From Harriotta raleighana (Eukaryota): a stretch of DNA of 64,000 bases. Location: the NCBI GenBank assembly GCA_050575255.1, contig JBNZDD010013673.1, positions 3,786,942-3,850,941 of the forward strand, read 5' to 3'. The translations under genes and the position numbers were made by a program. Under the pieces are notes generated by a model. The model worked only from the letters and a program-made list of their open reading frames with translations. It had not been told where the DNA came from and did not search any database. Shown here in pieces: positions 5,230 to 60,402 of the stretch (positions within the stretch are counted from its first letter, which is position 1; the number at the start of each line of letters is the position of its first letter).

Positions 5230-6188
5230 CTACCGGCAGGTACAAGCAGTAGCAATCATGTCCTCATACTCTTTGTAGGTTACAGAACCGTCATTTTCTA
5301 GCGTTAAGACACTCAGGGGGCTGTAGCTAGCGGGAACACAAGAGGGTTGAGGGATGGGGGATTTGCCTTTCTCATACAGGATGTTCTGCACTAGAGTGTG
5401 AACAGGGGAGCCATAGCGGTGACCCAAAGCCCTAGGGCAGTTTCCCCTGCAGAAACGTGGGTTGTAGTTGTGTGGGGCAATGATCCAACGATCCCATCTG
5501 AGCTGACTGAAGGCCAGCCTGAAGTCATGGAGCCGACATTCCTCCCTGGGAAGCTGCAACCGGGGGAAGCTACGCACTTTCTGGGGTGCCTTCACCAATC
5601 CTCTTCGCTTGGGACCTCTGCGTTGGCGAATAGAGCGGGAACTCGAACGCCTCACCAGCTCTCGGCTTTGATGAGAGGGGGTTTTTGCTGGTGACTGCAC
5701 CTGAGCCAGTTTGGGGTGGGCGTTGAGCTCGGTTTCACCGTACCATCGCTGATGAGCTTGTCCACGAGTGTCATTGAGGAACAAAAGTAAGGAAGGGGCC
5801 ATCAGAGACAGTTTCAATGGGCTGCCATGGCCATCTCTGCTTCTGGTGATGTTGGGGTGAGACTGGTCTGGTCTCACACACCAATAACTGAATATCACGT
5901 GAAGACTCCCCTTGTGAAACCCAATAAAGGGTTGAAGAAATGAGGTCAGATCCACTTCCACCCACTTGTGCCTCTTCCTACGCTCTAGATGCAGTAAGAA
6001 GTCATGAGATCGTTGGGTGTTGGAGCAAGTCTGCAACTGAATTATCTCGTGGTCCTTAACCTGGAGATGGCAGTTGCACAAAACTGGGAAATTAACGGAT
6101 TTGTCCACTGAGTAGAGCAGCACTGATCGCAACAGATCCTCCATCACAAAATCCAATCCATAGTACACATCCTGCTCAAACGCTTCTC
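5230..6188 (-). CDS. GDF9: Growth differentiation factor 9, exon 2 (rest of prodomain, RQRR furin site, mature TGF-beta domain)
   Basis: Acceptor ctttgttttcAG at 6190-6189, phase 1. Mature domain CRLHDFRLAFSQLRWDRWIIAPH..CRGNCPRALGHRYGSPVHT..PSCVP..YKEYEDMIATACTCR has six Cys with Ser in place of the dimerising Cys, diagnostic of GDF9/BMP15; HRYGSPVHT indicates GDF9. Confidence 0.97.
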
Positions 6189-7749
6189 CTGAAAACAAAG
6201 AAAATAGACATCAAGTCTGATTTTCCTTTATTACAGTTGATCTGACTGACAAGTCACTGTTGCACATCAGGCATCACCACTTAACATTTGGTGTTGAGAA
6301 TATAATAATCCTTATATTTGTTAGTGCCTCATTGTTGAGATGTTACAATGCACTTCAGAATATATTGCAAAGTGGATTGCCTATATAATTTATGGGTGAA
6401 ACACAGCAGCCAATTGCCCACAGCAATGTCCCACATTCAGTGGTGAATCGAGTTACAATTTTTTTGTATGTGAGGAATCAATACACCCAGAAAGCAATCT
6501 GCCAATCAACCAACAGCTGGGTTCCTACTCAAGCTAAACAGAGCAAGGAAACATTCCTAAGGTTTCACCCAACCCCCAAAACATGGTTGTAGTAAATGCC
6601 CTACATGTGGGGCATAAATAATCCTTGCATTTGATCTAGTACTTTAGCAGCTCAATCCATCTTAAAAAGTATTTTATTAGCACAGGGTAATTGGGGTTAG
6701 TTAGATACATGGGACAATAATTGCTGAGCTCTGTGGCAACAGAGAAGCTGCCCACACACAGCCACTATGTGAATGAACAAATTTATCTGGGGATTGTTGC
6801 CCAGGACACCGAGAGAAAAAACTCCCTTCTCTATTATCACCCAAATTACACCTGTATAGCGTCTTTCACATCAGGCGGACATCCCAAGGCGTTGGATACC
6901 AGCATATCTGCCGCATTTCGTAGAATTTGACAAACAGGGCAGAGAGGGAAACCTATTCAAGGCAGACTTGGCACAGGTGGGGGAGGGACAAGGGGAGTAA
7001 AGAAAATATTTGGATAATTTGGTTAACTAATATGTGAGGATCTATTGCAAGTTTTCAGGACTTGTTTGGAATCTACTCCAGGGCACCACCACTTAGTTTT
7101 AAGATCAAGCTTAAGTCCCATCCATTGAGTTTTTTTTAAAAAAAATTAAACTCAGTGGTTAGAGACCTCGCAAGTGAGAGACCTGGGTTCAATGCCAGGC
7201 AGGGCAAGTTTCCTTACCCCACACACCTGATAATCCCTCAAAAAACAGAATAACTGGGTCACTCAATCCACGACTGTTTATGGGACACTTTACAATAGAT
7301 TCTACAAAGCACATTCAAACCTCTCGAAGATTATTATTTTTATTGTTAACGGTAGCAAACAGTTTCTAAAGATAACGCCTTTGAAAAAGATTGCAAGTAT
7401 TAAGTGCACTTGTAACAGGACAGAATAATATCGAGACGGCTCTGAGTGTGTCTCTCTCTCTCCTGTCGGGTGGAAGGAATAATCCAACACCTTTTAAACA
7501 AACAAAAATTCTGGAACGAAATCACGAGAGGGAGAGACAGTAGTTTGCAAACCGAGCTATTCCAACACAGTCGCAAAACTCTTGGACGAGATTGATTTGG
7601 TGATGGATGTGGGAGGCAAGAGAAAAATATTTTAAAATAATCATAAACACTGACATTTGGTAAAGGCATTGAGCAGAGAGATGTCTAGGGGTGTATATAC
7701 TGTGTATATGTATATATATATATATATATATATTAAAGAGAGTCCTCAC

Positions 7750-8080
7750 CAGTAGTTGGGGGATACAGAGCCCGAGGAGACAGCAGGCGGACAGTGTTGT
7801 AGTGATGACCTGTGCGCTTGTTGGGCAGCCCAGCCTGGGTGGCTGACATGGTGTAGAGGCGCCTCATGTATCTCAGGTACTTGGCGTCGGGTTTCCTTGG
7901 GGAGCTGGGGCCCCTGCCCTCGGCCTCCCTCGGGATGCCGTCCACCTCGTGGCTTGGAGGCAACTGGGGGTCCGTCCAGCCGCTGGAGATGTCGCCCAAA
8001 GCCAAGGCGTTCGAAGCCAACCAGAGACCGCAGCAGAAACACACAGCCAAGCCGCCTGGCATCCACATGGTGTCCAACAT
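7750..8080 (-). CDS. GDF9: GDF9 exon 1 (signal peptide and N-terminal prodomain)
   Basis: Hydrophobic signal, then PDAKYLRYMRRLYTMSATQAGLP..HHYNTVRLLSP, matching the GDF9 prodomain. Donor G|GTGAGG at 7750/7749. 331+959=1290 nt, i.e. 429 aa plus stop in frame. The start could be a slightly downstream Met. Confidence 0.93.
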
Positions 8081-8204
8081 AACAGCCCACCTCCTCCTCT
8101 CTGTGTGTCTGTCTCACTCACTGAGGTATCCCACTCATTGACTACTATATACCACACACACGAACACCTCTTTCCCTCTCTCTCTCTCTGCGCTTTCAAA
8201 GAAT

Positions 8205-11890: not shown

Positions 11891-13112
11891 GCTTACGTTC
11901 TTTGGTGGAGTAAGCGTAGCTAAATTGCCTTTGCAGTATTTAAACTACAAAGTTGTGAATCGCACAGCTTCTAAAATCTCCTGATTCAACTCAGCAGTTT
12001 GAGTCTCAATACAGTGCCATTTGCTGACATGCATTTCGCCCACAAAAAGTATATATAGGGTCAATTTATTAACTTTAATACAACAACAGCAACAAAATTA
12101 CAGTAAACATGAAGCGCTTTGAGATGTCTCAAAGACATAATAAATGCAAGGATTATTATTATAACCACGCCAGCCTTAGATTTAGCTTCTGAATCCCACA
12201 ATTGGCTTTGCAATTGTGATTTTTGTGCAGCATGTGAATGAGACCAGAAACTACCAAGAAAGTCATGCAGAGAGCGTGCCAGTTATATTCAGGATGACAA
12301 GTGAGGCGAAACCTTCCCAGTTGTCTGTAAGAAAACTGAGCACTCTCAAGTGAATCAGCCTGAAACTTGACATCGCTTGGGTTGTGTGTGATCTCTTGTG
12401 ACAAATTATTTCAGGACTACTTTGCACCAGCGCTGTCCACTAAAATAAAGATTACTGAACACTTTTCCCATGGAGATGGTGCCCCTTTAAAATGACTAGC
12501 CTCGGGAACTTTTGCAAGAACTTTAAGAGCTCGGCTATCTATCAATAGAAGCACATTGGCATCTTACACTGACTGAGCAGTGCTATTCTCTGGATAATTG
12601 TTCACATTGGCAGTAACAGTTTTAGTGTCCTGGCTCCTCTCCAGCTTCCTCCTTGTGGGACTAATGCAATTGCACAGTCCTTCTCAGCTCCCTCCAGAGA
12701 CTGGTACAGTATACAATGAAAGATTAAGTCTTGAATAGTGTGTGCTAATGAAAGTAAATGTACATGGGAGCTGCATCTTCATGTGTGTTTGTAGAACTTG
12801 CCAGGGCATGATTCCCACCCTATGTCGTTTGCACACTGTTACGCAGCCTGTTCAACTTGTACATTGGAATATTTCACTCCAGAATTTTCTTGTAACTGAA
12901 ATAAATGAAGGGATGATAATCCCTTCAAAATATAATAATTTGGTCACTCGATCTACAATTGTTTATGGGACACTGATGAGTGCAATTCTCTGCCACATTT
13001 TGTCCACAAAATATATAGTCATTACTCTTTATGGTATATTCTATGAAACGCTTTGCTCAACAATGTGGTAAGGTGCTTCATCAATGGAAGTATTAGTATT
13101 ATATTCAAGATT

Positions 13113-31485: not shown

Positions 31486-31794
31486 GGTGTTATATCAAAT
31501 ACCAGGAGCATTATTATCAATATTATTATTATGCAAGTAAAGGATAAGACAAACGTTTCAGGTCGTTGATCCTTTTTCAATATTGACGGTGAAGATCTTT
31601 GAGATGTCTTAAAGTGCTACATCAAATGCAAGGATTATTTTCATATTTTATGATAAAATGCTTTGAACTGTAAATCATAATATTATTTTTACCGTTCACT
31701 TTCAGGAACTGCCTTGCCCTGAATAAGCAGACAGACACCCTGTTAGGATTCGAAACCGTGAAAGATGATCGGCTGACGGAACCCAAGATGAAGC

Positions 31795-32366
31795 ATGGAC
31801 AACTGGGACCAAACACCAGCTGCTCACTCCACAGGCTGTCTCTCTCCGATCAGGTTCACCAGCTTCAAGGATCCATTCAGTCATTGTCGTGGTAAAGGAG
31901 ACTCTGGTTACAGCTCATTCTCCACCTCTTCCAATGCTCCAGAATACCTAGCTTCAGCTCACTTGCATGAGAGTGCTGGTCCGCCAGAGAAGGTGCTTTA
32001 CCGGGAGTCAGAAGTACTGAAACCGCCTAGTATGAAGGGTACAAGGATAGTCTGTGATGCTGACACCATGGGCACTGAAGAGAGAGCTTTATACCAGTCA
32101 ATGAAGAACAACGTAAGTGGTCAACATGATAGTGTCTGTCGTCGATCAGAACCACCTCCACCTCCAACCCGTCATGATAGCTTCCTAGCTACCAGGCAGC
32201 ATGAATGCCTCATCGCTTGCACCAACACCAAGGGGCAGTACAGACACAATGTGATCGAGAGGCAGCCACCAGGAATAAAGACCTTTAAATGTGACCAGCA
32301 ATCTGTAAAGGAATCGGACAGAGCATCTGAGAGAGGGCAAAGCTATTGGCGGCCTCCGTGGATGAG
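31795..32366 (+). CDS. SHROOM1: SHROOM1 coding exon 1 (exon starts at 31706; ATG at 31795)
   Basis: Acceptor cactttcAG at 31704-31705; in-frame TGA at 31789 before the ATG. MDNWDQ..CLSP..KGDSGYSSFSTSS matches the Shroom DSAYSSFS motif close to the start of SHROOM1; also PPPPPTRHDSF. Weak phase-2 donor AG|GTACTC. Confidence 0.8.
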
Positions 32367-32391
32367 GTACTCTTCAACCCCTGATCTTGTA

Positions 32392-32640
32392 GTAATAATA
32401 ACAACAATAATAATAATATTAATAATAATAATAATAATCCTTACATTTGGTATAGCACCTTATCACATCGTCGGGCCGTCTCAAAATGCTTCAATAGAAT
32501 ATACAATAGAAAATGTTGGAAAGTGGATTTTGCAGGTGAAAGACGGCAGCCAATTGCGTGCAGCAGTGTCCCACAAACCATCGGGGATTGAGTGACCAAA
32601 TTATTCTTATTTACTTACTTGTTTGTTTATTTTGAAGGGT
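32392..32640 (-). mobile_element. 5'-truncated tRNA-SINE filling a small SHROOM1 intron
   Basis: (AAT)n-ccttacatttggtatagcacc...cagccaattgcgtgcagcagtgtcccacaaac...gattgagtgaccaaattatt..ttttgaaggg. Confidence 0.9.
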
Positions 32641-34660
32641 ACCCAGACAACACCACTTGATGGAAAGCCCAGAAGCATTTACTTCCAAGAGGAGTGACAA
32701 AGCGCTTCAGAACGATTCAGTTAATCCTTACACTTCCTTTCCTCACCACGGTTCTATTGTCCCCGTCAACTGTTCCGAATCACAGAAACAGGCCTCCATC
32801 GCCTCACAGGCCCATGGAAACAAATCACTGTGGCAACCCAGCCCACAGGACTGTGAGCCACCCCCCATCCAAACACTTTGTACAGTTAATGATGGGGTTC
32901 AGAAAGCAGCAACATATTTAAGTGTCCCTCATGCGGATGCTCAGACATCTGGCAGGGAGTACAGGCCGAAAGAAGCCATCCTCACTCAGGCAAAGAGCTC
33001 AGAAAATGTTACAGACAAAATATCACACCAGAGCAAGACTGATTATAAGCCTCATCTGGACAGAAATTGTAACAACAGAACCTTGGGTACCAAAGGTGCT
33101 GCGAGACGTTCGCCAGTTCGTTTGCCAAGTGTGGATTCACCACTTTTGATCGTTGAGACCCAAACAAGAGAACCAGGATTTAACAGCAGAGGCTACACCA
33201 GCAGCCATGTATTCCACTCTGGCCCCGATGAAAATGCCCACAACCCCAGACCAGTTTCTTCAGTGCTGGAGGCTGCCCAAGCCACGAATCGCAACAAGTA
33301 TTTGAATGAAAGACGAGCAAGCGATTGCACGTCTGGCTATAACACGGAGAGCAGAGCACCTCAGCCGAATCCATATGCCAGTGCAAAGAGCTCCTATATT
33401 GTCGCAGAGGAGCCCCCTCCAAGGCCTGGGTGGCAAGATATAGCGAACGAGTATGCGATCAGTGCGGAAAACACTCCAATGCTGCACCGCCTTACCTCCG
33501 AAAGTAAGCGTTTGGCGAAGAACACAGGGGTCAATTACAAATGGCAGCTGTCTGACCCGGCAAAGGGACCACCAAAGGAAGTGCAGGGAAGCTATTTCGT
33601 GGCTGCCAACTCACACAGCGGGATCGAGTATGGTATGTCGCAGCTACGAAGAGCAAGGAGTTCCACCCAACTCTGCGATGATGGTGGCGGGATTGCCCCG
33701 AATGAAGAATCTCCAGGCCCCGCAGGCTTGTTGACCAATTGCACTAAGTCGGATTACAGAAACAAAATCAAGGACGCACAGACTAAGGTCCTGCTACAGA
33801 CCTCTTTCAAACGCAAGGACCTCCAGTTCAGCTGGCCAAACCGAATCAAGCAGAAGTCAGTGGAGAGACCAACCATCGCACATTTCCGAGCATACTCTCT
33901 ATCCGGCTCAAACCAAGCCCTCAGTGATTCAACAGTCCCATTTCCACAGGGACTGTACGAGTCACTGGACGGCATGCCCGTACTGTCCCAGCACCAGATC
34001 TCTCGCATTGGTGGGAGGAGAAGATTGACGGCAATGCAGAAGAAAATGTGCTTTTCGGAGCCCGAGAAGATAAACCAGTTGGGTTTGTCGAACAGTCAGC
34101 GGAGGTGCTCTTCCACTTTGGAGCAGGGGAAGTCCAACAACTGTCCAGATCCGCAACGAGATCTGAATTGGCTGGCGAGGAGACAGGCGTTAGAAAGTGG
34201 CAGGACTTGCTCGACGTTAAACGTCTACAAGGAGGGGATGAACCAGATTCGTCACGATGTGTTAGCCGACTACATGGAATGCAAGAAAGGCCAGAAACCC
34301 TCCGGAGGAGATCTTGCGGTTCTCGAAAAGCAAAGAGCGGAGCCTGTTCCACAGAGAAACATTTCCGACTGGAATCATAACCCGTTTCCCGGCTCTGGTG
34401 GCGAACCCAAGAAATCCAGGCGCAAATCTGCAGAGATTCTATACGAACCACCGCTGAATTACTCTATGTACCACCAAGGCTACAGTAATGTGTCAGCTGT
34501 GCATCTCTTAAAACAGCCACCAGTTGCTCGATACTTGCGCACGCAGGCAGATAGTCGGAGCTCCAGCAAGTGTGCATCTGATGAGGATCTTCTGGACCAA
34601 CTAGCATTTGATCAGTTCAGTAAACGTGCGAGGTCCAAGTCTTCTCCTCTGCTTCCACAG
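32638..34660 (+). CDS. SHROOM1: SHROOM1 large exon with the ASD1 actin-binding domain
   Basis: Open for 674 codons; ENTPMLHRL, YRNKIKDAQTKVLLQTSFKRKDL, RIGGRRRLTAMQKKMCFSEPEKINQLG (ASD1); ends RARSKSSPLLPQ|GTATAT, phase 0. Confidence 0.9.
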
Positions 34661-35004
34661 GTATATGTGATTTGTATTGATATAGCCCCCTTCGCTCACG
34701 GTAGCATCCTAGAGCGCTTGACAGTGGCGGAGCGTGACGCCAAGCCGGGGGGAGGTGATAGGGGGGAGGTAATTGTAGGCATATTCAAAGAGGAAGGTCT
34801 TCAGGCGTGAACTGAAGGCAGGAAAGAAGTGGGTGAGTAATTACGTAATTGGCTTGGTCTAGCATCAAAATTGCCCACTCCATCCATAATCTCAACCATA
34901 GTATGTCATATGGTGAGTTGGAGGGCAGGGAGAAGCTAACCAATAGGCTGGACTTTGACCTCCCCTCCCTCAGTATTGCGAGATGGGAGACCTCGAGGGA
35001 GATG

Positions 35005-35821: not shown

Positions 35822-37728
35822 TATATAGTTTGGGGCATGTGACTGCCAGAATGGTGGAAGGTGATCTGAATGGATCTTAGTCTTCCTTTTGACTCACAAT
35901 TAGTTTCATGAACAAGCACAAAGTTCTTATGATGGACTGTCTATCAAAATGCCAACAGCTAGCAATAGCAATGCTCAAAAATCTACAGTAATGGAATATC
36001 GCTAGACCTTAATATGTTTGTGAAATGAGTATTTAGTTGCAAATGTATATCATTTTATTCAGAAAGGGAGAAAGAGTTTAATAATTTTTTGGCAATGCCT
36101 CTGATCAATCAGAATTAAATAAAGCAGCTTACTGTGAATGGGCAAGATCCTGCTAGCTCACTGTAAAACAAAATGTTTTGTTCAGCCAAGTGTCTGACAC
36201 CCATCACCAGGCTTAGGAGTATCCAGACCAAGGTATGATTTCTATGCATCCCACCTACACAGAGAAATCTCAGAGATAGATTGTTGGAACGGAATTTCAC
36301 TCTCTCCCTGGAGGGACGAATCCCGTTTACCTAATTCTATAAAGTATAAGGCGCAGGTTTGCAAGAACCAAGGCTTGGGGAACCAGAGTGTGTGTTGTGG
36401 TAACTGCTGGAATCCAACCAGCGAAAACAACTTACAGTATTTTGCCATTGATATTGCTGTCCAGCAAGCTTTCTTACTGCTTGTCTAGCTAGGACCACCC
36501 TCCCTGTTAGGGCTTTGACTTGCAAAACTATGTGGGATGACTCCCTGCCCCAGTGACTTTTCTTGCCTTCCAGTTCCTGCCAATGAGCTGGGCTGTCCTG
36601 TTATCAGCAGTGCCCTGGAATAATGCAGGGTCCTGTCTGGCCAGGGAACTGATGACCAGGACCGATGATTCAGCTCCAATGAGATCCCGCTTTCCCCCCT
36701 CCCCTGTCTCCTGGAGAATATAAACCCCATAACAATTAGTCAACGTTCGGCCTCAATCCTGCTGCACCCAATCCTCAGCAGAAGGGCGATAGACAATTAT
36801 TTCAAAAAAGGCAATGTCATCCGTGGAAAATTGCACAAGTTCAGGCTGTTTCTTGTTCCTGCGATTGGGTGGGTGGGGGGGGAGATAGAAAAAGGTAACT
36901 ATTGTTGGAGAATGTTGCTGAATTGACACTGCATCACTTGTGCGTGATGTCCTGACACAACGTATCACAGCAGCTTGGCTGGATTACACCCCCCCCACCC
37001 AATCCCCCGACTCTGCTTTCGCTTGTTCTCGGAATATTGATAACACAGTAACCTTCTGATAACTCGACCCTGGCTTAACTTGTCACTACCACTCAAGCCA
37101 TCGTGCTGTCAGTATCCTGGACACACTTATTTACATACCCCTGACTTGCCACATTAGGATAATTCGTCTCTGATCTCTTTAACCCTGGAGTGAGGGTTGA
37201 TCAGGAATTTACTGTATTTACTTTTCACTCCGAATGGAGCAAAGGGTGAGGATGGGTCTATCTCTATTTTCTCGCAGAAAAGGGAGTCCACAGAGTTTCT
37301 GCAAAGAACAGAGTTTCACACATTCCCTGCCCTGACTCTGTGGTATTTAGTGCCACAGAAAATCACACATCAACCACTGAGGGGCGCTGCATCTCCATCC
37401 ACATCTTAACACAAAACTCTAGACTGACTTGACCAAGGTCTGACTCAATCAGATTTCTGTGCTGCAAAATAGGCCATTTCCTTCTCCACAGCTTATATTG
37501 TGGCATAAAACTCCCACTGAAGGAATGTGGGGCAAGGCAGATAAAAAGGCTCCTGCTACAAAATGTAAAGCCCAAGTATTTAGTCCACGGAAGCTTAAAC
37601 TATTATTAAAGGCTTGTATAAGGTTGCGTTCATTTGTGAGCTCACTTGAAGTGAGCATTCTATAAATGTTATTTTGTTGTTGTTGTTTCCAGTCACTTAA
37701 ATTAACTTCAGAGTGTTTTTTGTTTCAG

Positions 37729-38445
37729 GTCTCATGTTCCCCAAATAAACCCTGCACCAGTTTCTTATGCAATCGACAACAAAAGCACCCGCCATCACAG
37801 AGAGCTCAGCAGGGGCGCGTTTGAAAGGCAGAGAATCAAGTCTTTGGATGAATTGGAGTGTCCTGTAGTGGAATATCCGATTGTGTTGAGCAGAAGTTCT
37901 GATCAACTCCACCGTTCGGGGAAAGGTAACAGGCCAGCCAACGGACTGGCAACACAAACTGGGATTTATGGATTCCAAAGGAGAACCATCAAAGAGCTGG
38001 AAAGGGAAACCTTCCCCCCAGCTCCAGCGAGGCTTCTCTCCTCTCAGCTCAACTGGAATAAAACAAAGACAGAAAGTATCAATGAGGTCGGGTCAGGACT
38101 TGACTCTGTTTCATCTGCAGGTCCAGGCTACATGTTTGAGAGATGCTGCAATGTGTCCAAAATACACAACCAGCCCTCCGGTACAGAAACTTCTTCTCCT
38201 AAAACTCCTTCTCCACGGCCCCCTGTGCCATTCCCACCCTGGAGATCCTCATCCCAGGAAGATCAGGTGTTTTATGAGGATTCCTCCACAAAATCAGAGA
38301 GCGTTGACATTAATGTTCCCCAGGCTTCTGAAAATGCTTTGCTTAAATCTAATCTCATCAACGTACATGTGTCCAGAACATTTGATTCCTCACCCAATGA
38401 AATACCAATGGAGAATAAACTCAAGATTACACAACAAATAACCAG
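37729..38445 (+). CDS. SHROOM1: SHROOM1 exon (717 nt, Pro/Ser-rich)
   Basis: Acceptor ttttgtttcAG, donor AG|GTAAAA; phase 2-2, open throughout (RQRIKSLDEL, SRSSDQL, PSPRPPVPFPP). Confidence 0.8.
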
Positions 38446-39050
38446 GTAAAAGAAAGCAGACCTTTTAATCTAATAAATTTGTATCTCTCCTTATGAACAC
38501 ATTCTTCTTTTACACAGCACATCACTTAATCTTTGATCCTAATGTTATATTAATAATAATAATCCTTACATTTAACATAGCACCTTATCTGTGAGACTTC
38601 TCAAAGCCCTTCACAGAATATACAGTAAAGTGAATTGACTGTATTTTTTGTGGGGGAAGCATGGCAGCCAATTGTGCACAGCAGTATCCCACAAACAATT
38701 GTGAATTGAATGATCAATTTATTATTATTTTCTGTTTGAGTAAAAGAAGCGAGTTTCCTGATGAACCTCTGGCTGAATGTGAGGGTTGTATTGTCACCCA
38801 GTGGTCTCTGCCTATGTATACTTTAACACAAGATCTGCTTAAAAAAAATTACAAATTCACCCCCAACAACTCAACGTACGGGAGGGGAAGACAGTGCGGT
38901 GTATTGACGTCCAATTTGATCTACTGTGAGTGAGTAATCAGATGGAGAACTTTAACAATAAGAGGAGGGAGAAAATGAGCATTTGTATAGCACCCAACTG
39001 AGTGTTTTCACCATCAGCAGCTGATGGACACATCCATTTCTCTCTTTCAG

Positions 39051-39527
39051 TGGAAATAATTCACCATCGAATGGTGACTATCATCTGACGAGTCCTTTAG
39101 AGAATTGTGAAGAGGAACAAACGGGGACAGAGACAGTAGCTCAACTGAAGTGTCCAGTTACAAATCTTTCTCCACACCAACCCCTGTGGAGAAAAGAAGA
39201 TCTGGTGAGCGGGACAGCGTCCCACCAAGAGGAGACCAGGAAAGTGAGACCAAAACAAACTCTTGAGCCACGTGCAGAGAGCCAAGTTGAGGTGTCTCTC
39301 TCACTGAGGGTGAAGACCCCTGAGGACTTGCTAGTGGAAAGCCTTATGAAGGAAATTCTGGATCAGGACCAGTCACTGTCAGACTTGCTAGGTCCCAGCT
39401 CTGCCGAGAGAACCACATTGGATCTTGTGGAAGGATTGTTTCGAACAGACACCTGGGTGCTTGATACTTTTCAGACGAGAAAGCAAATGACCATCGAGAG
39501 AAAGGAAATGGAAACCCAGGCGAACAG
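39051..39527 (+). CDS. SHROOM1: SHROOM1 exon (477 nt)
   Basis: Acceptor tctctttcAG; KTPEDLLVESLMKEILDQDQSLSDLLGP..TTLDLVEGLF is the conserved pre-ASD2 Shroom motif; donor AG|GTAGGC. Confidence 0.88.
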
Positions 39528-40709
39528 GTAGGCAATCTGACTGAACTCGCTCCTAAATGACTCCCTGATTGAACTTTCCTTTGAGAGCAGGCAGGCGTTG
39601 GCGTAACAGTCAGGAAAGGGATTGGGAAATTCAAGCTGTGTTTTGCCATAATTTAATCAGTAGTTTGATGTCCCTCTCTCCTATGCTTCTTCATAATACC
39701 TGAGGCTCAGAATGATGGTAAGTGATCTGGTCACAGGTTTTCCACTTTGGCCCTGGTATAACCGAAAGCAATCCCTTTCTTCTGACTTTCTCTCTCTTCC
39801 TTCCTGTGAGGTGACTTGGCTTCACGAGAAGCTTCCTATAACAAGATGGATATAAATGGATCCTGTGGGTTTGCTGAATCAACAGTGTTTTCCACCAATT
39901 TCACAGAACAATTGGTGGGAAACACTTTTTGTTTACCACAAGCATTTATTCTTTGATTCAAATGTTTTAGTGCAAAAAGTGAATTCCTTAACAAAATCAA
40001 CCCTTCCTATCACCCACCATCCCACCTGTTCCCCTACTCTATATGAATGCACACTGTTGAGCAATTCAATTGATAATGATGATGATAATAATCCTTGCAT
40101 TTGATATAGCATCATTTCTTCAACACATCTTAAAGCACTTCACAGAATACATTGTAAAGTGAATTGATTGTATTTTGTGGGAAAAACGTGACAGACTATT
40201 GTGAACTACCACAAACAGTCATAGATTGAGTGGCCAAATTATTATTATTATTTTTAAAACATTTTCATACCAGTAGCTCCAGGTACTAATTTCCTGTTCC
40301 AGTAAACTAGGCTGAATGAAATGCAAGCAGACATGTCAAAGTTGACCTATGGAATATAGGGCAGAAAAGTGTTCATTCCAGGCTTCCAATGTCTCTTAGT
40401 GACACTGGAAGTTTGGTGACGGTTTGTGTCACATTGTGGATTATTACATACGGTGAACCTGTACCCGGTAGTAATTTAAATGAAATGACTCCAAACCCTA
40501 ACTACCAACTGGGAGACTTTCCATCAGTCTAATCTAAAAGTCAATCCAGGTTAAAAGGGGCAAAAAGGTTAGCATGCTCACCATCTGCATGGGTATTTGA
40601 AATGTTTGATTGCTCACTGTAAAATCACATTGTGTAAATTCTCTCCAGTTTGGTACAGTAGTGTTAATGCTGGAGATTAATCCCCTTCCTGTTCACTTCT
40701 TCCTGTCAG

Positions 40710-40839
40710 AAACAAGACAGATACTCAGGTGTCAGCATCGCCAACAGCGGGCACATGTTCCTGTCCTGAGACAAATAATCTGTCCCAGAAAAGCGTTGAG
40801 GATAAAAGGGGTCAACCAAGCAATGTAACAGGGAAGATG
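40710..40839 (+). CDS. SHROOM1: SHROOM1 exon (130 nt)
   Basis: Acceptor cttcttcctgtcAG, donor ATG|GTAAGT; phase 2 to 0, open. Confidence 0.8.
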
Positions 40840-41203
40840 GTAAGTACTGTACTTAAAGGTACTTTTTTTTTCTTTTGTCAGCCAAGTGTGCGACACATAA
40901 CACCATGTTTAAGTCTATCTGAATACACTTGAATCTGAAGCAGTAATGTCCAGCGCCATGGGACGCCCTCCTGACGGGAAAGGCGCTATACAAATGTAAT
41001 CTTGTTATTGCCAAACTCAGAATTCCATGCTTCCCACCTACACATAGAAATTCCAGAGAAAGATTGTTGGAATGGAATGCAAAAAACTCTCCCCCCTGAC
41101 TATAATAATATTATAATTCATTACAAGTCTTTGTAAGGATGTCCAGTTACTGATGTACAACGCATCGTTGAGGATCTGATATGCATTTTCCTTTCTTTCG
41201 CAG

Positions 41204-41476
41204 CGAGAGTTAATCGACGCCATTAATTGTAAACTTCGGAAGCTTCAGGAAAGGAAGGTGGCTCTAACTGCGGACATCAGAGCCAACGATCTGCTGGGGG
41301 AAGATATCGAGGCCTGGGTGGAAGGTGTCTGTGAACCCCACGAGGTGCAGAAATACAAAACCTTCATTAAAGATTTGGACAAAGTGCTGAATCTGATCTT
41401 GAGCCTGTCGAGTCGGTTGGCACGCGTGGAGAATGCTCTGAATAAAGTCAACGAGGCCACCGATTCGGAGGAGAAG
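41204..41476 (+). CDS. SHROOM1: SHROOM1 ASD2 exon (273 nt)
   Basis: RELIDAINCKLRKLQ..KYKTFIKDLDKVLNLILSLSSRLARVENAL (ASD2); acceptor tttcgcAG, donor AAG|GTTTGT. Confidence 0.95.
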
Positions 41477-41871
41477 GTTTGTCACTATATTAGAACAAAA
41501 TTGCTTGCATTTTAAAAAAAGTGCCTTGGCCCAACATCCAACTGCCTTGAAGCGCTTTGTGGGATTTTACTGTAAAGTTTAAGAAAGTGTGTATTTGTAG
41601 ATAATAATAATCCTTGCCTTTGATATAGCGCTTTCACTGTCTTCTAAATGTCTCAAAGTGCTAAACAGTATATAGTGTAAAGTGAATTGACTGTATATTT
41701 ATGGGAGAAAAGGCATCCCTGCATTTGATTTAGCGCCTTATCAAGTTACTAAGACGTCTCTAAGTGTTTCATGTATTGAAGCAAATTGTATTTTGTGGGT
41801 GAAATACTGTGTTGAACTTTGTATAGGTTTTTCCACAGTGAAATTGAGTGCAAGTTGTGTGTTTTGTTTAG

Positions 41872-42126
41872 AAATCACTGAATGAAAGGCACCATATGCT
41901 GTCTGGACAGCATGAAGATGCCAGGGGACTGAAAGAGCATCAGGATCACAGAGAGAGAATGACCTTCAATATCCTATGCAACCACCTCACTGAGACCCAG
42001 CTCCAGGACTCCCAGCAATTTATCCAGATGAAAAAAGTCTTACTAATTGAGCAAAGAGATCTCAATGAGCGCCTCAAACTCACAGAGGATCAATTAGGAT
42101 GTCTCCAGAACAGCCTCGAGTCCTGA
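41872..42126 (+). CDS. SHROOM1: SHROOM1 last coding exon (ASD2 C-terminus)
   Basis: KSLNERHHMLSGQHEDARGLKE..LLIEQRDLNERLKL..stop. The eight exons total 4533 nt, i.e. 1510 aa plus stop. Confidence 0.93.
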   Translation, partial: KSLNERHHMLSGQHEDARGLKEHQDHRERMTFNILCNHLTETQLQDSQQFIQMKKVLLIEQRDLNERLKLTEDQLGCLQNSLES

Positions 42127-47184: not shown

Positions 47185-47487
47185 AATAATAATAATCTTT
47201 GCATTTGATATAGCGCTTTTCACATCTTTTAGACATCTCAAAGCTCTTCACTTTACACTGTAAAGTGAATTGACTGTATATTTGTGGGCAAAACGCGGCA
47301 GCCAATAGCAGTGTCCCACAAACAGTCGTGGATTGAAATAACCAGTTTGTTATTTTTTTTTGAGGGATTATTAACAGGCGTGTGATATAAGGAAACTTGC
47401 CCAAGGTTTCGCCCTGACCTGCCTGGATTCGAACACAGGTCTCACGCTTGTAAGGTGAGTGTTCTAACCATCGAGCTGTAGGACTCC
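47185..47487 (-). mobile_element. Full-length, low-divergence tRNA-SINE
   Basis: Tail aataatctttgcatttgatatagcgc through head ggattcgaac..ctaaccatcgagctgtaggactc. Confidence 0.9.
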
Positions 47488-51480: not shown

Positions 51481-53124
51481 TCAGAGGAAAATCTCAGTCA
51501 CCGGTCGGCGCTTCATCACCACCTCGTCTACTCCATCCTCTTCGAGCTCCTCGTTCAAGGAGCTAAAGTTCCCACGGAGTTTGGGTCTTTTCTTGTACAT
51601 TGACGGAGCGGCGAAGAATTTGCTCAACGTGGCCGGTTTCTTCAAGGATTTGGAGATGTCCGAGAAGTTGATGTCGTCAGTCAAGGCTCCTAGAAAGGTG
51701 TTGGTGGAGCTCAGGATGGAGTGACCCGCTTTGGAATTCCTCTTGTGAAGAGGAACGGCTTCGGGGATCAAGGCATCCGGGTCTCCCAACAACTGCCTGA
51801 CCACCAGCGAGTTATCCTTGTTCAAATAGTGGTAGGGCCTTTTCCCACTGTAATCCCGGAGACTCGTTTTCGCCCCATAGACCTGCACCAGTTTAAGAAT
51901 GACGTCCTCTTTGCCGTGGATGGCGGCAATGTGCAGGGGTGTGTAGCCGCCATAGGCTTTGGAGTTGATGTCTAACTTGGTGCCTTTCTTCTCCGCCGTC
52001 TCGATGATCCAGCAAACCATCTCACTGTTGCCTGATTTGGCTGCCCAGTGGATGGCAGTGAATCCGGACATGAAGTCCCTCTTCTCGGCCAGGTTGACGT
52101 CCTTCAGCATGAGGCCACATACATGCGTCCAGTGTCCCAGTGCTGTCTTTACTATCCACTCGTGCTCCACAGGATCCAGGGGCACCTGGTCGGACAGACG
52201 CAAGTCCTCGCTTGCCTTCAGGAGCCGGGAAGACCTCTTGGACTGGGGTGAGTTGCCGGCAGCTTCCGTGGGTTGGCTCCTCTTCATTTGGGGAGTCTTG
52301 GGGTTGTCAATCAAATCTCCCGAAGAGGCCAGAGGGACCTCTGTGGACTGGGCGCAGTTTTCGATGCCTTGCTGTTGCTGCTGCTGCTGCTGCTGCTGCT
52401 TTTGCTGGCTCTGACCAGAGCTGTACCTGTTGCAGTCCGGAGGGAGTCTAAGAGGGTACATATGGGGTTTGGCTTTGCGGGCGGGCAACGCCTTGGGAGC
52501 CCCTGGCGTGTTGCTCTTGGTGTTGCCGTCCCCAGATTTGGTCTCATAATTGCCAACCTTCTGGCTGAAGCTCAGAGCGCTGAAATTGGTCTCTGCCGGA
52601 GATGGAGGGGACGAGGGCTGAGGGGGAACCAGAGAAGGGGCAACATCTGGGCCGGTGTCAGCGGGGGATGTCTGCTCTCTGGGTGGGGAGGTGGAGGAGG
52701 CAGAGGCGCTCGCGATTCGCAGTGAAGCAGCAGCGCATTCTGCCAAGGAAAGTTCGCCCTCGTTCGCAAGCTCTCGGCTTGCGGAGCGCTGCAAGGAGAA
52801 GGCTTGTGGACTCAGTTTTACCTGCTCCTCCTTCCGCCTCCTCCTCTTCTCACCGTCCTCTCCCGGTGGGGTGGGACTGCTAGCCGGGTTGGGCAGCAGG
52901 TGCTGCCATTTTTTCCTCAGCACCACAAATTTCACCCCTTCCTCCTCGCGGACCACAGCCACGCTGTTGATGTAGTGTTTGAAGAGGTCGCGGAGCTGCC
53001 GCTTGATCTGAGGGTCCTTGTGATTGAGAGCGAACCTGAAGCGATACAGCAACTCCGAGTTCCTGACCTTACCACCAGCCTCCACCACAAAGTTGATCAC
53101 AGCCTCCTGGTTCATCCCTTCCAT
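51481..53124 (-). CDS. SOWAHA: Sosondowah ankyrin repeat protein A (ANKRD43), single exon, 547 aa
   Basis: N-terminal Sowah domain (F..EAGGKVRNSELL..F..FKHYINSVAVV..GVKFVVLRKK), VPLDPVEHEWIV, and ankyrin repeats (DFMSGFTAIHWAAKSG, GGYTPLHIAAIHG, RDYSGKRP). ACCATGG Kozak at 53124; the ORF-track start at 53202 is a TTG. Paralogue A assigned by position beside SHROOM1. Confidence 0.93.
   Translation of the reverse strand: MEGMNQEAVINFVVEAGGKVRNSELLYRFRFALNHKDPQIKRQLRDLFKHYINSVAVVREEEGVKFVVLRKKWQHLLPNPASSPTPPGEDGEKRRRRKEEQVKLSPQAFSLQRSASRELANEGELSLAECAAASLRIASASASSTSPPREQTSPADTGPDVAPSLVPPQPSSPPSPAETNFSALSFSQKVGNYETKSGDGNTKSNTPGAPKALPARKAKPHMYPLRLPPDCNRYSSGQSQQKQQQQQQQQQQGIENCAQSTEVPLASSGDLIDNPKTPQMKRSQPTEAAGNSPQSKRSSRLLKASEDLRLSDQVPLDPVEHEWIVKTALGHWTHVCGLMLKDVNLAEKRDFMSGFTAIHWAAKSGNSEMVCWIIETAEKKGTKLDINSKAYGGYTPLHIAAIHGKEDVILKLVQVYGAKTSLRDYSGKRPYHYLNKDNSLVVRQLLGDPDALIPEAVPLHKRNSKAGHSILSSTNTFLGALTDDINFSDISKSLKKPATLSKFFAAPSMYKKRPKLRGNFSSLNEELEEDGVDEVVMKRRPVTEIFL
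52369..52407 (-). repeat. Coding (CAG/CAA)n polyglutamine tract in SOWAHA
   Basis: QQK followed by Q10, with 7 uninterrupted CAG. Confidence 0.9.
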
Positions 53125-54729
53125 GGTCAATTCAACTTTCCTCCTTCCTTCTTTCCTTCCTTCTCCAGCCAAAAAAAAAATTCCTCCTTCTACTCCTTCC
53201 AAAAAAAATTATATATATATATATATTTATATGTAACACTCAATGCAAAGTCAAGCAGTTAAAAAGTTACTGCATTCATTCCGACGCCTGGGTTATAGAG
53301 CTCCCTATGTTAATCACATCCTTCAATACAATGCAAAGCAAAGCTCTCCCAACTCTTGCAAGTACCTGTGATTTCCGGGACACGCATCATGTTTTGATAC
53401 ACACACACACACACCCTTTGAGCTAGATACACACACACACCCACCCTGCATATTACCATAAATTATGTGCAAACCATAGAGAGAGGAGTGTGTGTGTGTG
53501 TGTCCCAGGCAAAGAGGGAGGAGCCAGGCTTCAGAAGGTGTTTCTGGGATTTGTATTCCCATTAGTTTTATTTCTCAAGTTGTTTTAAGTTTAAGTTCAA
53601 TTTCTTTTCTCCCCTCCCGTCCAATTTTTTAANAGTTGTTTTAAGTTTAAGTTCAATTTCTTTTCTCCCCTCCCGTCCAATTTAAAAAAATNAAAATAAA
53701 CAGTCGCTCGATCGCCGACTGTCTTTTTGGACGCTGGGCTGCCGCGTTTGGGCAGCGCTCAAACCCATGTTACAATATCGTTAGTGAAGCGCTTTGAGAC
53801 GTCTCAACAATGTGATAAGGCGCTCTGTCAAATGCAAGGATTATTATCATTCTTATTCCCACCAGAGAGTTGGATTCACATCGGTGTCAATTAAATATTT
53901 TTATCCCCCAGCCGTGCTTGTGAAGAGATGTTAAACCAAGATCCTGTCTGACACAGTGACTGTCCAGCGCCTTTGGACATCCTCCTGACGTGAAAGGCGC
54001 TATACAAACATAATTTTGTTGTAGTTATTGGACGTTAAAGATCTCATGGTATTGATTGAAAAGAGAAGGATGTTTGTCTTTCCCAGAGTCAACAATCCCC
54101 CAAGTAAAATTGTTCGCTCGTTCTATGGCTGTTTGAGGAACACTGCTGTGCGCAAACTGACTGCCGCGTTTCACCCACAAAATACGCAGTCGATCCACTT
54201 TACAGCATATCCTATGATGCACTTTGAGACAAAATGACAACATGATAAGACGCTACATCAACTGCAAGCAATTATTGTGAATATTATTATTATTATGATT
54301 TTTGTATAAGCTTCTAAGGTGCCAAACTATATGTGATATTGATGAGCGGGGCTGAAGAGCGGGCAGACTGACTGCACGGCTGATTTCTGCAATTGTTCTA
54401 GTCCTGTCTCCTAGCTCTGTCTTTCAGATGCGAATAAATCTGCTGAGAATTGCAGGCAATTCTATTTCTATTGCAAGCTATTCTGAAATGCAGCAGAAAC
54501 CCTTAGCAACCAACACTTTTTGCCAGTGGGATTTCCTCTCCTGTGGCCTGGAACACTGTCTCGCTCCCAACCATCTGCAGCAACAGGGACTACTGGAGTT
54601 TGTGCAGTATTTTGGCCCCTGAAAACTCAGGAATCCACTGAACTCTGTAATATCTCTTTGTATTCTCAGAAAACACTGCAACACTATATCTCTTGGCAAT
54701 TTTGTATTCTGAGAAAACACCAGGGACAA

Positions 54730-59289: not shown

Positions 59290-59738
59290 TATTCAGTCAA
59301 TTAAATTTATGGTACTGTACATTCTTCTGAAGGGCTTTGAGGAGTCCAGAAGACGTGAGAAGCGCTATATCAGAGGCAAGGATCACTAATGATNATTATT
59401 ACTGTTACTTTTATCACTAAGGTCAAACGTGGCCCCACTTTTTTTCCGCTAAACCCGTCCCAAAACCAAAGCCCAACTGAGATGGAAATGGGAGCTTCGA
59501 GTCGCCGCGAATCCAAACTACAAGTCCCAGAAGGAGACGTAGGCACTCCGAAAGAAAAGGCCATTTCTCTGGTGGAAGTGGGGGAAATGGGAAAAGTTCT
59601 TTCTTGCAGATNTTATTATTACTGTTACTTTTATCACTAAGGTCAAACGTGGCCCCACTTTTATTTTCCGCTAAACCCGTCCCAAAACCAAAGCCCAACT
59701 GAGATGGAAATGGGAGCTTCGAGGCGCCGCGAATCCAA

Positions 59739-59755
59739 ACTACAAGTCCCAGAAG
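59739..59755 (+). promoter_or_regulatory. ZNF143/THAP11-type promoter motif ACTACAnnTCCCAGAAG (second copy at 59517-59533 is probably an assembly duplicate)
   Basis: actacaagtcccagaag matches the well-known ACTACA..TCCCA promoter element, in a CpG-containing patch about 650 bp upstream of the candidate exon at 60403. Confidence 0.65.
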
Positions 59756-60402
59756 GAGACGTAGGCACTCGGAAAGAAAAGGCCATTTCTCTGGTGGAAG
59801 TGGGGGAAATGGGAAAAGTTCTTTCTTGCAGATTCAATATGAAATCAAAAGAGGACGATCCATTTGACTGATGGGCTGGGGGGAGGGGGGGTGGGGAGGG
59901 GGCAAGATCCCATTGATTGATTTAAGGTCCCCCCCCTCTCTCTCTCTCTCCCTCCCCACCCCAAAAAAAATAACAGGTTGCTGTGAAACAAGGGTAGAGG
60001 TGGTTTGTGTGTGGAGTAGGAAGAAAGGAGCTTGATCTTTGTGTGTGTGTGTGTGTGTGTCTATCTCTGTGTGTGTGTGTGAGACTAGGCGGTAGTGCAG
60101 TTTGCTTTCCATTGAAGAGAGCAGTGTTGGGGGTGGGTTGGTTTGCTGGAACCTCTGTGTTACAGCCAGGGCTGGGGAGACAGCGGAAGACACTGAGACA
60201 CACAGACGCTTGAGATACTTTGGAGGGAGGGAGGCTGGGTGGGTGGGGGGAGGTGAAGAGGCTGTAAAGCTCTCAATACAATCCCTTCAGACTTTCTGCT
60301 GCTGTGGTGTGGTTGTTGGGTGGAAGAGGCAGAGACATATATATAGAGAGAGAGAGAGACATAGAGAGAGAGAGAGAGAGACATAGAGAGAAAAACAACG
60401 TC

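Follow-up and report, generated by a model that had tools for sequence, protein, structure and literature searches.

How a large coding exon can remain intact with a SINE lying inside it is the question raised by the SHROOM1 locus in the window analyzed here, a 64-kb stretch of DNA. An earlier reading, made without database searches (hereafter the sequence-only reading), had proposed that the SINE is spliced out as a new intron, using a donor in the exon and an acceptor carried by the SINE itself. The gene is taken to be SHROOM1 of a chimaera other than C. milii (elephant shark), because the upstream half of its large exon shares 72% identity with C. milii Shroom1 and 38-47% with four shark proteins. 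Its nearest relatives are chondrichthyan Shroom1 proteins, ASD1 (PF08688) is present, and all exons through the C terminus were found. By tblastn with the C. milii protein (P0001) as the query, seven segments of the window were covered, reaching the last residue of the query. On the forward strand, these are the upstream half of the large exon (31706-32366; predicted acceptor at 31705, ATG at 31795, 190 codons plus 2 nt), its downstream half (32638-34660; 674 codons with ASD1 inside), and a block of five later coding exons (37727-42123; about 37727-38443, 39049-39528, 40708-40836, 41201-41476, and 41872-42123). The start Met of the upstream half aligned with that of all five relatives compared. 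A genome search for ASD1 gave three loci, the SHROOM1 locus and two paralogues, of which one alone is of the SHROOM1 type. The flanking open reading frames (5230-8113 and 51481-53208) may fit the GDF9-SOWAHA synteny of SHROOM1. Two of the database proteins, XP_007889714.2 of C. milii (P0007) and XP_051870867.1 of Pristis (P0029), are labelled Shroom3 and are SHROOM1 by sequence.

The two halves of the large exon are separated by a predicted GT-AG intron of 271 nt (32367-32637, forward strand), with the donor GAG/GTACTC at 32366/32367 and the acceptor TTTTGAAG/GG at 32637/32638, both in phase 2. The splice pair was found as the sequence-only reading had placed it, and its claim of intact flanking frames also held, the spliced frame running for 865 stop-free codons from the ATG at 31795 to the exon end at 34660. 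There is no N within 31600-34800; elsewhere in the window, a stretch of about 200 nt occurs on both sides of an N (59423-59833), probably an assembly artefact at the gap. The features of a U2-type intron are present, that is, GT-AG ends, a pyrimidine tract, a branch-point-like motif, and a restored frame. The donor deviates at positions +4 and +5 from the consensus, and the predicted acceptor is AAG, as compared with five CAG and one TAG at the six other SHROOM1 acceptors examined. The gap-free alignment to C. milii was seen for the 32366/32638 junction, and further candidate splice sites lie nearby.

Without splicing, the frame crosses the SINE and meets a stop at 32593-32595. A transcript retaining the intron would carry a read-through of 76 codons (32365-32595), with a hydrophobic segment, rich in isoleucine, contributed by the SINE tail repeat; such a long read-through is probably due to chance, and degradation of the transcript would be expected. 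If the segment were left unspliced, the gene would be dead, its product would be truncated at this stop, or translation would start from the ATG at 32660. The weak donor is in line with such an outcome, but the two halves and the five later exons are all undamaged and conserved to a similar degree (identity to C. milii at 141 of 191 residues in the upstream half and 510 of 674 in the downstream half), and the SHROOM1-type locus is single among the three ASD1 matches. Furthermore, neutral decay would break the upstream half: in simulations with indels, its 570 nt stayed open in none of 3000 runs at either 0.10 or 0.18 substitutions per site; at 0.05, 41 of 3000 runs left it open. When indels were omitted and substitutions kept, it survived in 125-1127 of 3000 runs, and therefore the outcome leans on the indel rate, which was derived from SINE copies. 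A dead SHROOM1 or a downstream start is thus unlikely, and the whole set of unspliced outcomes is considered very improbable. The 271-nt segment is likely to be spliced out of SHROOM1 as an intron.

The origin of this intron was considered from its composition. The SINE copy, antisense to the gene, consists of a decayed (ATT)n repeat forming its 3' tail (32392-32436, reverse strand, the start being possibly at 32389), a core of an older subfamily (32437-32599, reverse strand), and a linker with the 5' truncation point (32600-32639, reverse strand), as defined by consensus alignment. The match to the subfamily consensus extends from the tail as far as 32639, where it breaks off; the copy is therefore 5'-truncated. 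The SINE portion of the intron amounts to 246-249 nt, in agreement with the earlier claim of about 245 of the 271 nt, and the non-SINE portion to 22-25 nt; these ranges arise because GTA triplets may be counted as decayed tail, setting the SINE start at either 32389 or 32392. On the forward strand, the linker region (32600-32639) carries an AG-free T-rich tract and the AG of the acceptor (32636-32637); the first G of the exon probably belongs to it as well. A CTTAC motif in the linker, with its A at 32617, is a putative branch point, judged from its likeness to the consensus motif. Thus, one splice site, the acceptor, lies inside the element, as expected of an intron gained through a transposable element.

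The acceptor matches the linker of the SINE subfamily itself. At the position of linker and acceptor, the 39 nearest copies have TTTTGAAGGGATT as their consensus, these copies having been chosen by similarity to a query that contained the linker, with matches extending to the linker in just two of the 39. An unselected copy at window position 13093 carries the same linker, and the T-run plus GAGGGA that the sequence-only reading had pointed out in other copies was found near 47360 and 54918. Beyond the linker, the subfamily consensus runs on with a TACCC stretch resembling the first exon bases (window 32636-32650), at which sharks have V-P-E-K. Because of this resemblance, the SINE may have been truncated at a microhomology, and therefore the origin of a few exon bases is ambiguous.

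The element belongs to a tRNA-derived SINE family, of which full-length copies are composed of a tRNA-like head, a core, and an (ATT)n tail; RF00005 scored above the gathering score at two of the four loci scanned and below it at a third. The tRNA-like head is missing from the truncated SHROOM1 copy. A tRNA-derived SINE with a 3' end common to a CR1-like LINE is described in the available part of PMC1845163. At least two subfamilies exist, differing in the linker and in an internal block. A total of 296 SINE pieces were identified in 444 kb, and 67 full-length copies with (ATT)n tails were examined in the window and in further loci of the genome. No target-site duplication was detected for these 67 copies, the longest exact flank repeat being 8 nt, without excess over mismatched flanks. 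Intron gain by duplication of an AGGT target site, which would supply both splice sites, is disfavoured by this lack of a duplication signal. A latent antisense acceptor is common across the family: in 108 of 121 pooled copies, the first AG lies 8-45 nt beyond the core, and in 56 of these 108 the preceding tract is at least 70% pyrimidine. The AG-free tract of the SHROOM1 copy (36 nt) is the longest among those 56 copies, as counted within the cut-off, which left out tracts longer than 45 nt.

The state of the exon before insertion was approached by comparison with C. milii, sharks, and rays. The C. milii protein, in both RefSeq versions, aligned without gaps to the spliced form across the junction. 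In all 10 elasmobranch species aligned (P0005 and P0007 were omitted from this alignment, their species being already represented), eight extra residues are located precisely at the junction, at residue 191. This indel of eight residues is the largest of the 20 indels between holocephalans and elasmobranchs across the 865 codons, and its length is close to that of the non-SINE remnant (22-25 nt, or seven to eight codons). The exon structures of C. milii and sharks are deduced here from proteins that are gene models. For polarity, a profile of the elasmobranch junction was run against 129 further Shroom proteins, including SHROOM1 of bowfin (P0030), coelacanth (P0032), and paddlefish (P0033); the best score was 21 bits, as against 75 for C. 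milii, and inspection by eye of seven N termini gave no recognizable junction motif. Since the matches of bony fish around the junction are weak, this outgroup does not settle whether the 8-residue indel was a gain or a loss. When metagenomes were scanned with the C. milii protein, 34 pattern matches were obtained, none of them a relative.

The non-SINE remnant (32367-32391, forward strand), beginning at the GT of the donor, would represent former exon sequence of seven to eight codons turned into intron, as suggested by its position and length, both of which fit the eight residues of elasmobranchs. The sequence-only reading had gone further, taking the in-frame translation of the remnant as a sign of former coding sequence and suggesting that a YSSTPDL-like peptide be looked for in the SHROOM1 of other vertebrates. 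The first argument was discarded, because eight random codons are free of stops about 68% of the time. As for the second, homology of the remnant peptide was convincing by eye and not significant on testing. Against six shark peptides, 99 of 857 nulls in one set and 522 of 3000 in another scored at least as high as the remnant; against the 10 elasmobranchs, the corresponding nulls were 55 of 856 (seven codons plus a gap) and 264 of 856 (eight codons). Conversion of the remnant to its match in Pristiophorus takes nine base changes, as compared with an average of 5.2 for truly homologous 7-codon blocks. What agrees with the sharks is thus position and length, and long neutral drift would blur the similarity of the remnant.

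A different history of the intron follows if it is older than the SINE. An intron at or near this codon might have existed in all chondrichthyans or in stem holocephalans, and a SINE inserted later would have deleted its 3' part and supplied the acceptor, with the extra residues of sharks arising by sliding of the splice site. An intron of any content at this place would be compatible with the C. milii protein, and the coding origin of the remnant is not demonstrable from the sequence tests described above, as this history would allow. On the other hand, the two paralogues in the same genome do read continuously across this region, their uninterrupted frames (959 and 1163 codons) starting ahead of the DSAYSSFS motif and reaching the equivalent of the SHROOM1 exon end; this continuity favours a single ancestral exon, an open frame being no strict exclusion of an intron. 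In addition, just 22-25 nt of the intron are non-SINE and the context of the acceptor is that of the SINE linker, and therefore the deletion would have had to end at the old splice site, keeping both position and phase. An intron older than the SINE is accordingly regarded as unlikely.

A second alternative accepts the birth of the intron from the SINE and confines it to the present lineage. The exon of C. milii would then be continuous after an earlier 24-nt deletion, the SINE would later have struck the same codon, and the remnant would be a decayed duplication or filler. The remnant does resemble the first 27 nt or so of the downstream exon, with p of about 0.01-0.10 depending on the null: a similarity as high was found in 32 of 3000 shuffles, 144 of 3000 shuffles with AGGT fixed, and 81 of 831 exon windows. 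This marginal likeness would suit a target-site duplication, which is disfavoured by the 67 full-length copies without duplications beyond chance. A plain duplication, moreover, would have been out of frame until one more base was lost, and the insertion must have hit the lone 8-codon indel among 865 codons, a coincidence of about 0.3% (allowing one codon on either side). The age of the copy gives this alternative some room. With CpG masked, the core stands at a K2P distance of 0.18 from its own consensus (95% range, about 0.12-0.27; rank 106 among 122 local copies), and 0.129 is a lower bound for the pairwise nonsynonymous divergence between this gene and that of C. milii, so that dating is loose and these data cannot place the copy before or after the split from C. 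milii. That split would be about 187 million years old if this genome is chimaerid or equally distant, from the date given for Chimaera-Callorhinchus in the available part of PMC12952989; Ks between C. milii and another chimaera is computed in PMC10620051 and shown there in figures. Restriction of the event to this lineage is considered quite improbable, and the insertion is probably old and common to C. milii rather than recent or species-specific, because the C. milii protein follows the spliced form without a gap and the elasmobranch proteins are eight residues longer at the junction.

Taken together, we hold with fair confidence that the intron was born from the SINE, whatever its age. With a more moderate degree of confidence, we favour the reading that the SINE entered this exon in an ancestral holocephalan and has been spliced out by means of an exonic donor and a SINE acceptor, in common with C. 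milii. The SINE would have landed in antisense orientation, without target-site duplication, truncated just past its T-run and GAAGG linker; the linker would have served as the 3' splice site, and an exonic AG/GT located 22-25 nt upstream as the donor. With this pair of sites, the insertion would therefore have been removable in frame at once, the frame being kept without further mutation provided that the donor GT pre-existed. The price would have been the loss of seven to eight codons from a poorly conserved, indel-rich region, and C. milii would carry and splice the same intron. That the remnant is the 8-residue segment of elasmobranchs made intronic, with C. milii splicing likewise, appears to be the simplest account. 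Of the origin proposed by the sequence-only reading, the combination of exonic donor and SINE acceptor stands as the best reading, with C. milii colinear, target-site duplications absent, and paralogues continuous; no YSSTPDL-like peptide is significantly conserved in sharks.

Other SINE pieces were surveyed for the same arrangement. The 444 kb covered, which is 0.04% of the genome, holds 296 pieces and thus 592 piece-strand pairs. Three of these pairs were flanked on either side by 100 or more open codons, and the SHROOM1 SINE, flanked by 201 and 718 open codons, was the sole credible case. A SINE head between apparent long frames in L084 (2500-4950; G000:C13673 near 3921600) was rejected as an N-gap artefact beside LINE-like fragments. 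A SINE piece near 3984530-3984640 of G000:C13673, flanked by 113 and 103 open codons, probably owes these frames to chance. Since an abundant chimaera SINE has a ready-made antisense acceptor, more such introns may exist genome-wide, overlooked by surveys that require gap-free flanking alignment. If the present reading is true, it provides a rule for such a search: short introns covered by the chimaera SINE, with the acceptor at the linker.

Vertebrates seldom gain introns, and the sequence from which a gained intron arose can usually no longer be recognized; at SHROOM1, the source element, the splice site that it would have supplied, and the cost to the protein (seven to eight residues) are all readable. 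In the accessible part of PMC3964593, C. milii has the fewest intron gains and losses among the vertebrates compared. A literature search, with most subscription papers outside it, gave no report of the SHROOM1 intron or of a vertebrate SINE-born coding intron, and the available part of PMC3257199 added no further SINE-born coding case. This silence is weak evidence of novelty, and the intron may already be contained, unremarked, in the annotation of C. milii.

Among known systems, the closest are the Alu intronization events in last exons of human SS18L1, CWF19L1, C14orf111, and PDZD7 (Sela et al. 2007, PMC2394776), before which, according to the accessible text of that paper, SINE-born introns of vertebrates were unreported. 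As described there, insertion of a SINE into an exon likewise makes an intron, and in SS18L1 the SINE provides one splice site and the exon the second. The four Alu cases, however, lie in 3' UTRs and are alternative, with both retained and spliced forms, whereas the SHROOM1 intron would lie in coding sequence, its removal being required for the full protein at a loss of seven to eight codons, and is apparently far older. The p-SINE1-like intron of the rice catalase gene CatA, known to us from its description in the available part of PMC2394776, is likewise derived from a SINE and located in coding sequence, in a plant. Introns 3 and 5 of notothenioid slc26a2 are similar in being born from a transposable element within a vertebrate protein-coding gene, and the element, in the portion of PMC12357937 at hand, is described with putative inverted repeats and with direct repeats of 4 nt that bear GT-AG; the SHROOM1 element differs in being a non-LTR SINE without target-site duplication, with a donor that would come from the host exon. 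Introners share insertion of a transposable element as the source of introns, about 5% of those classified being non-LTR (Gozashti et al. 2025, PMC12130899, available part), but are families that produce many introns, as compared with one credible copy among 296 local pieces here. The mechanism is of a known type at a single locus and not a new kind of system. A SINE-born, coding, and apparently fixed vertebrate intron is likely what would be new, and if true, it would extend SINE intronization from alternative events in 3' UTRs to a required coding intron.
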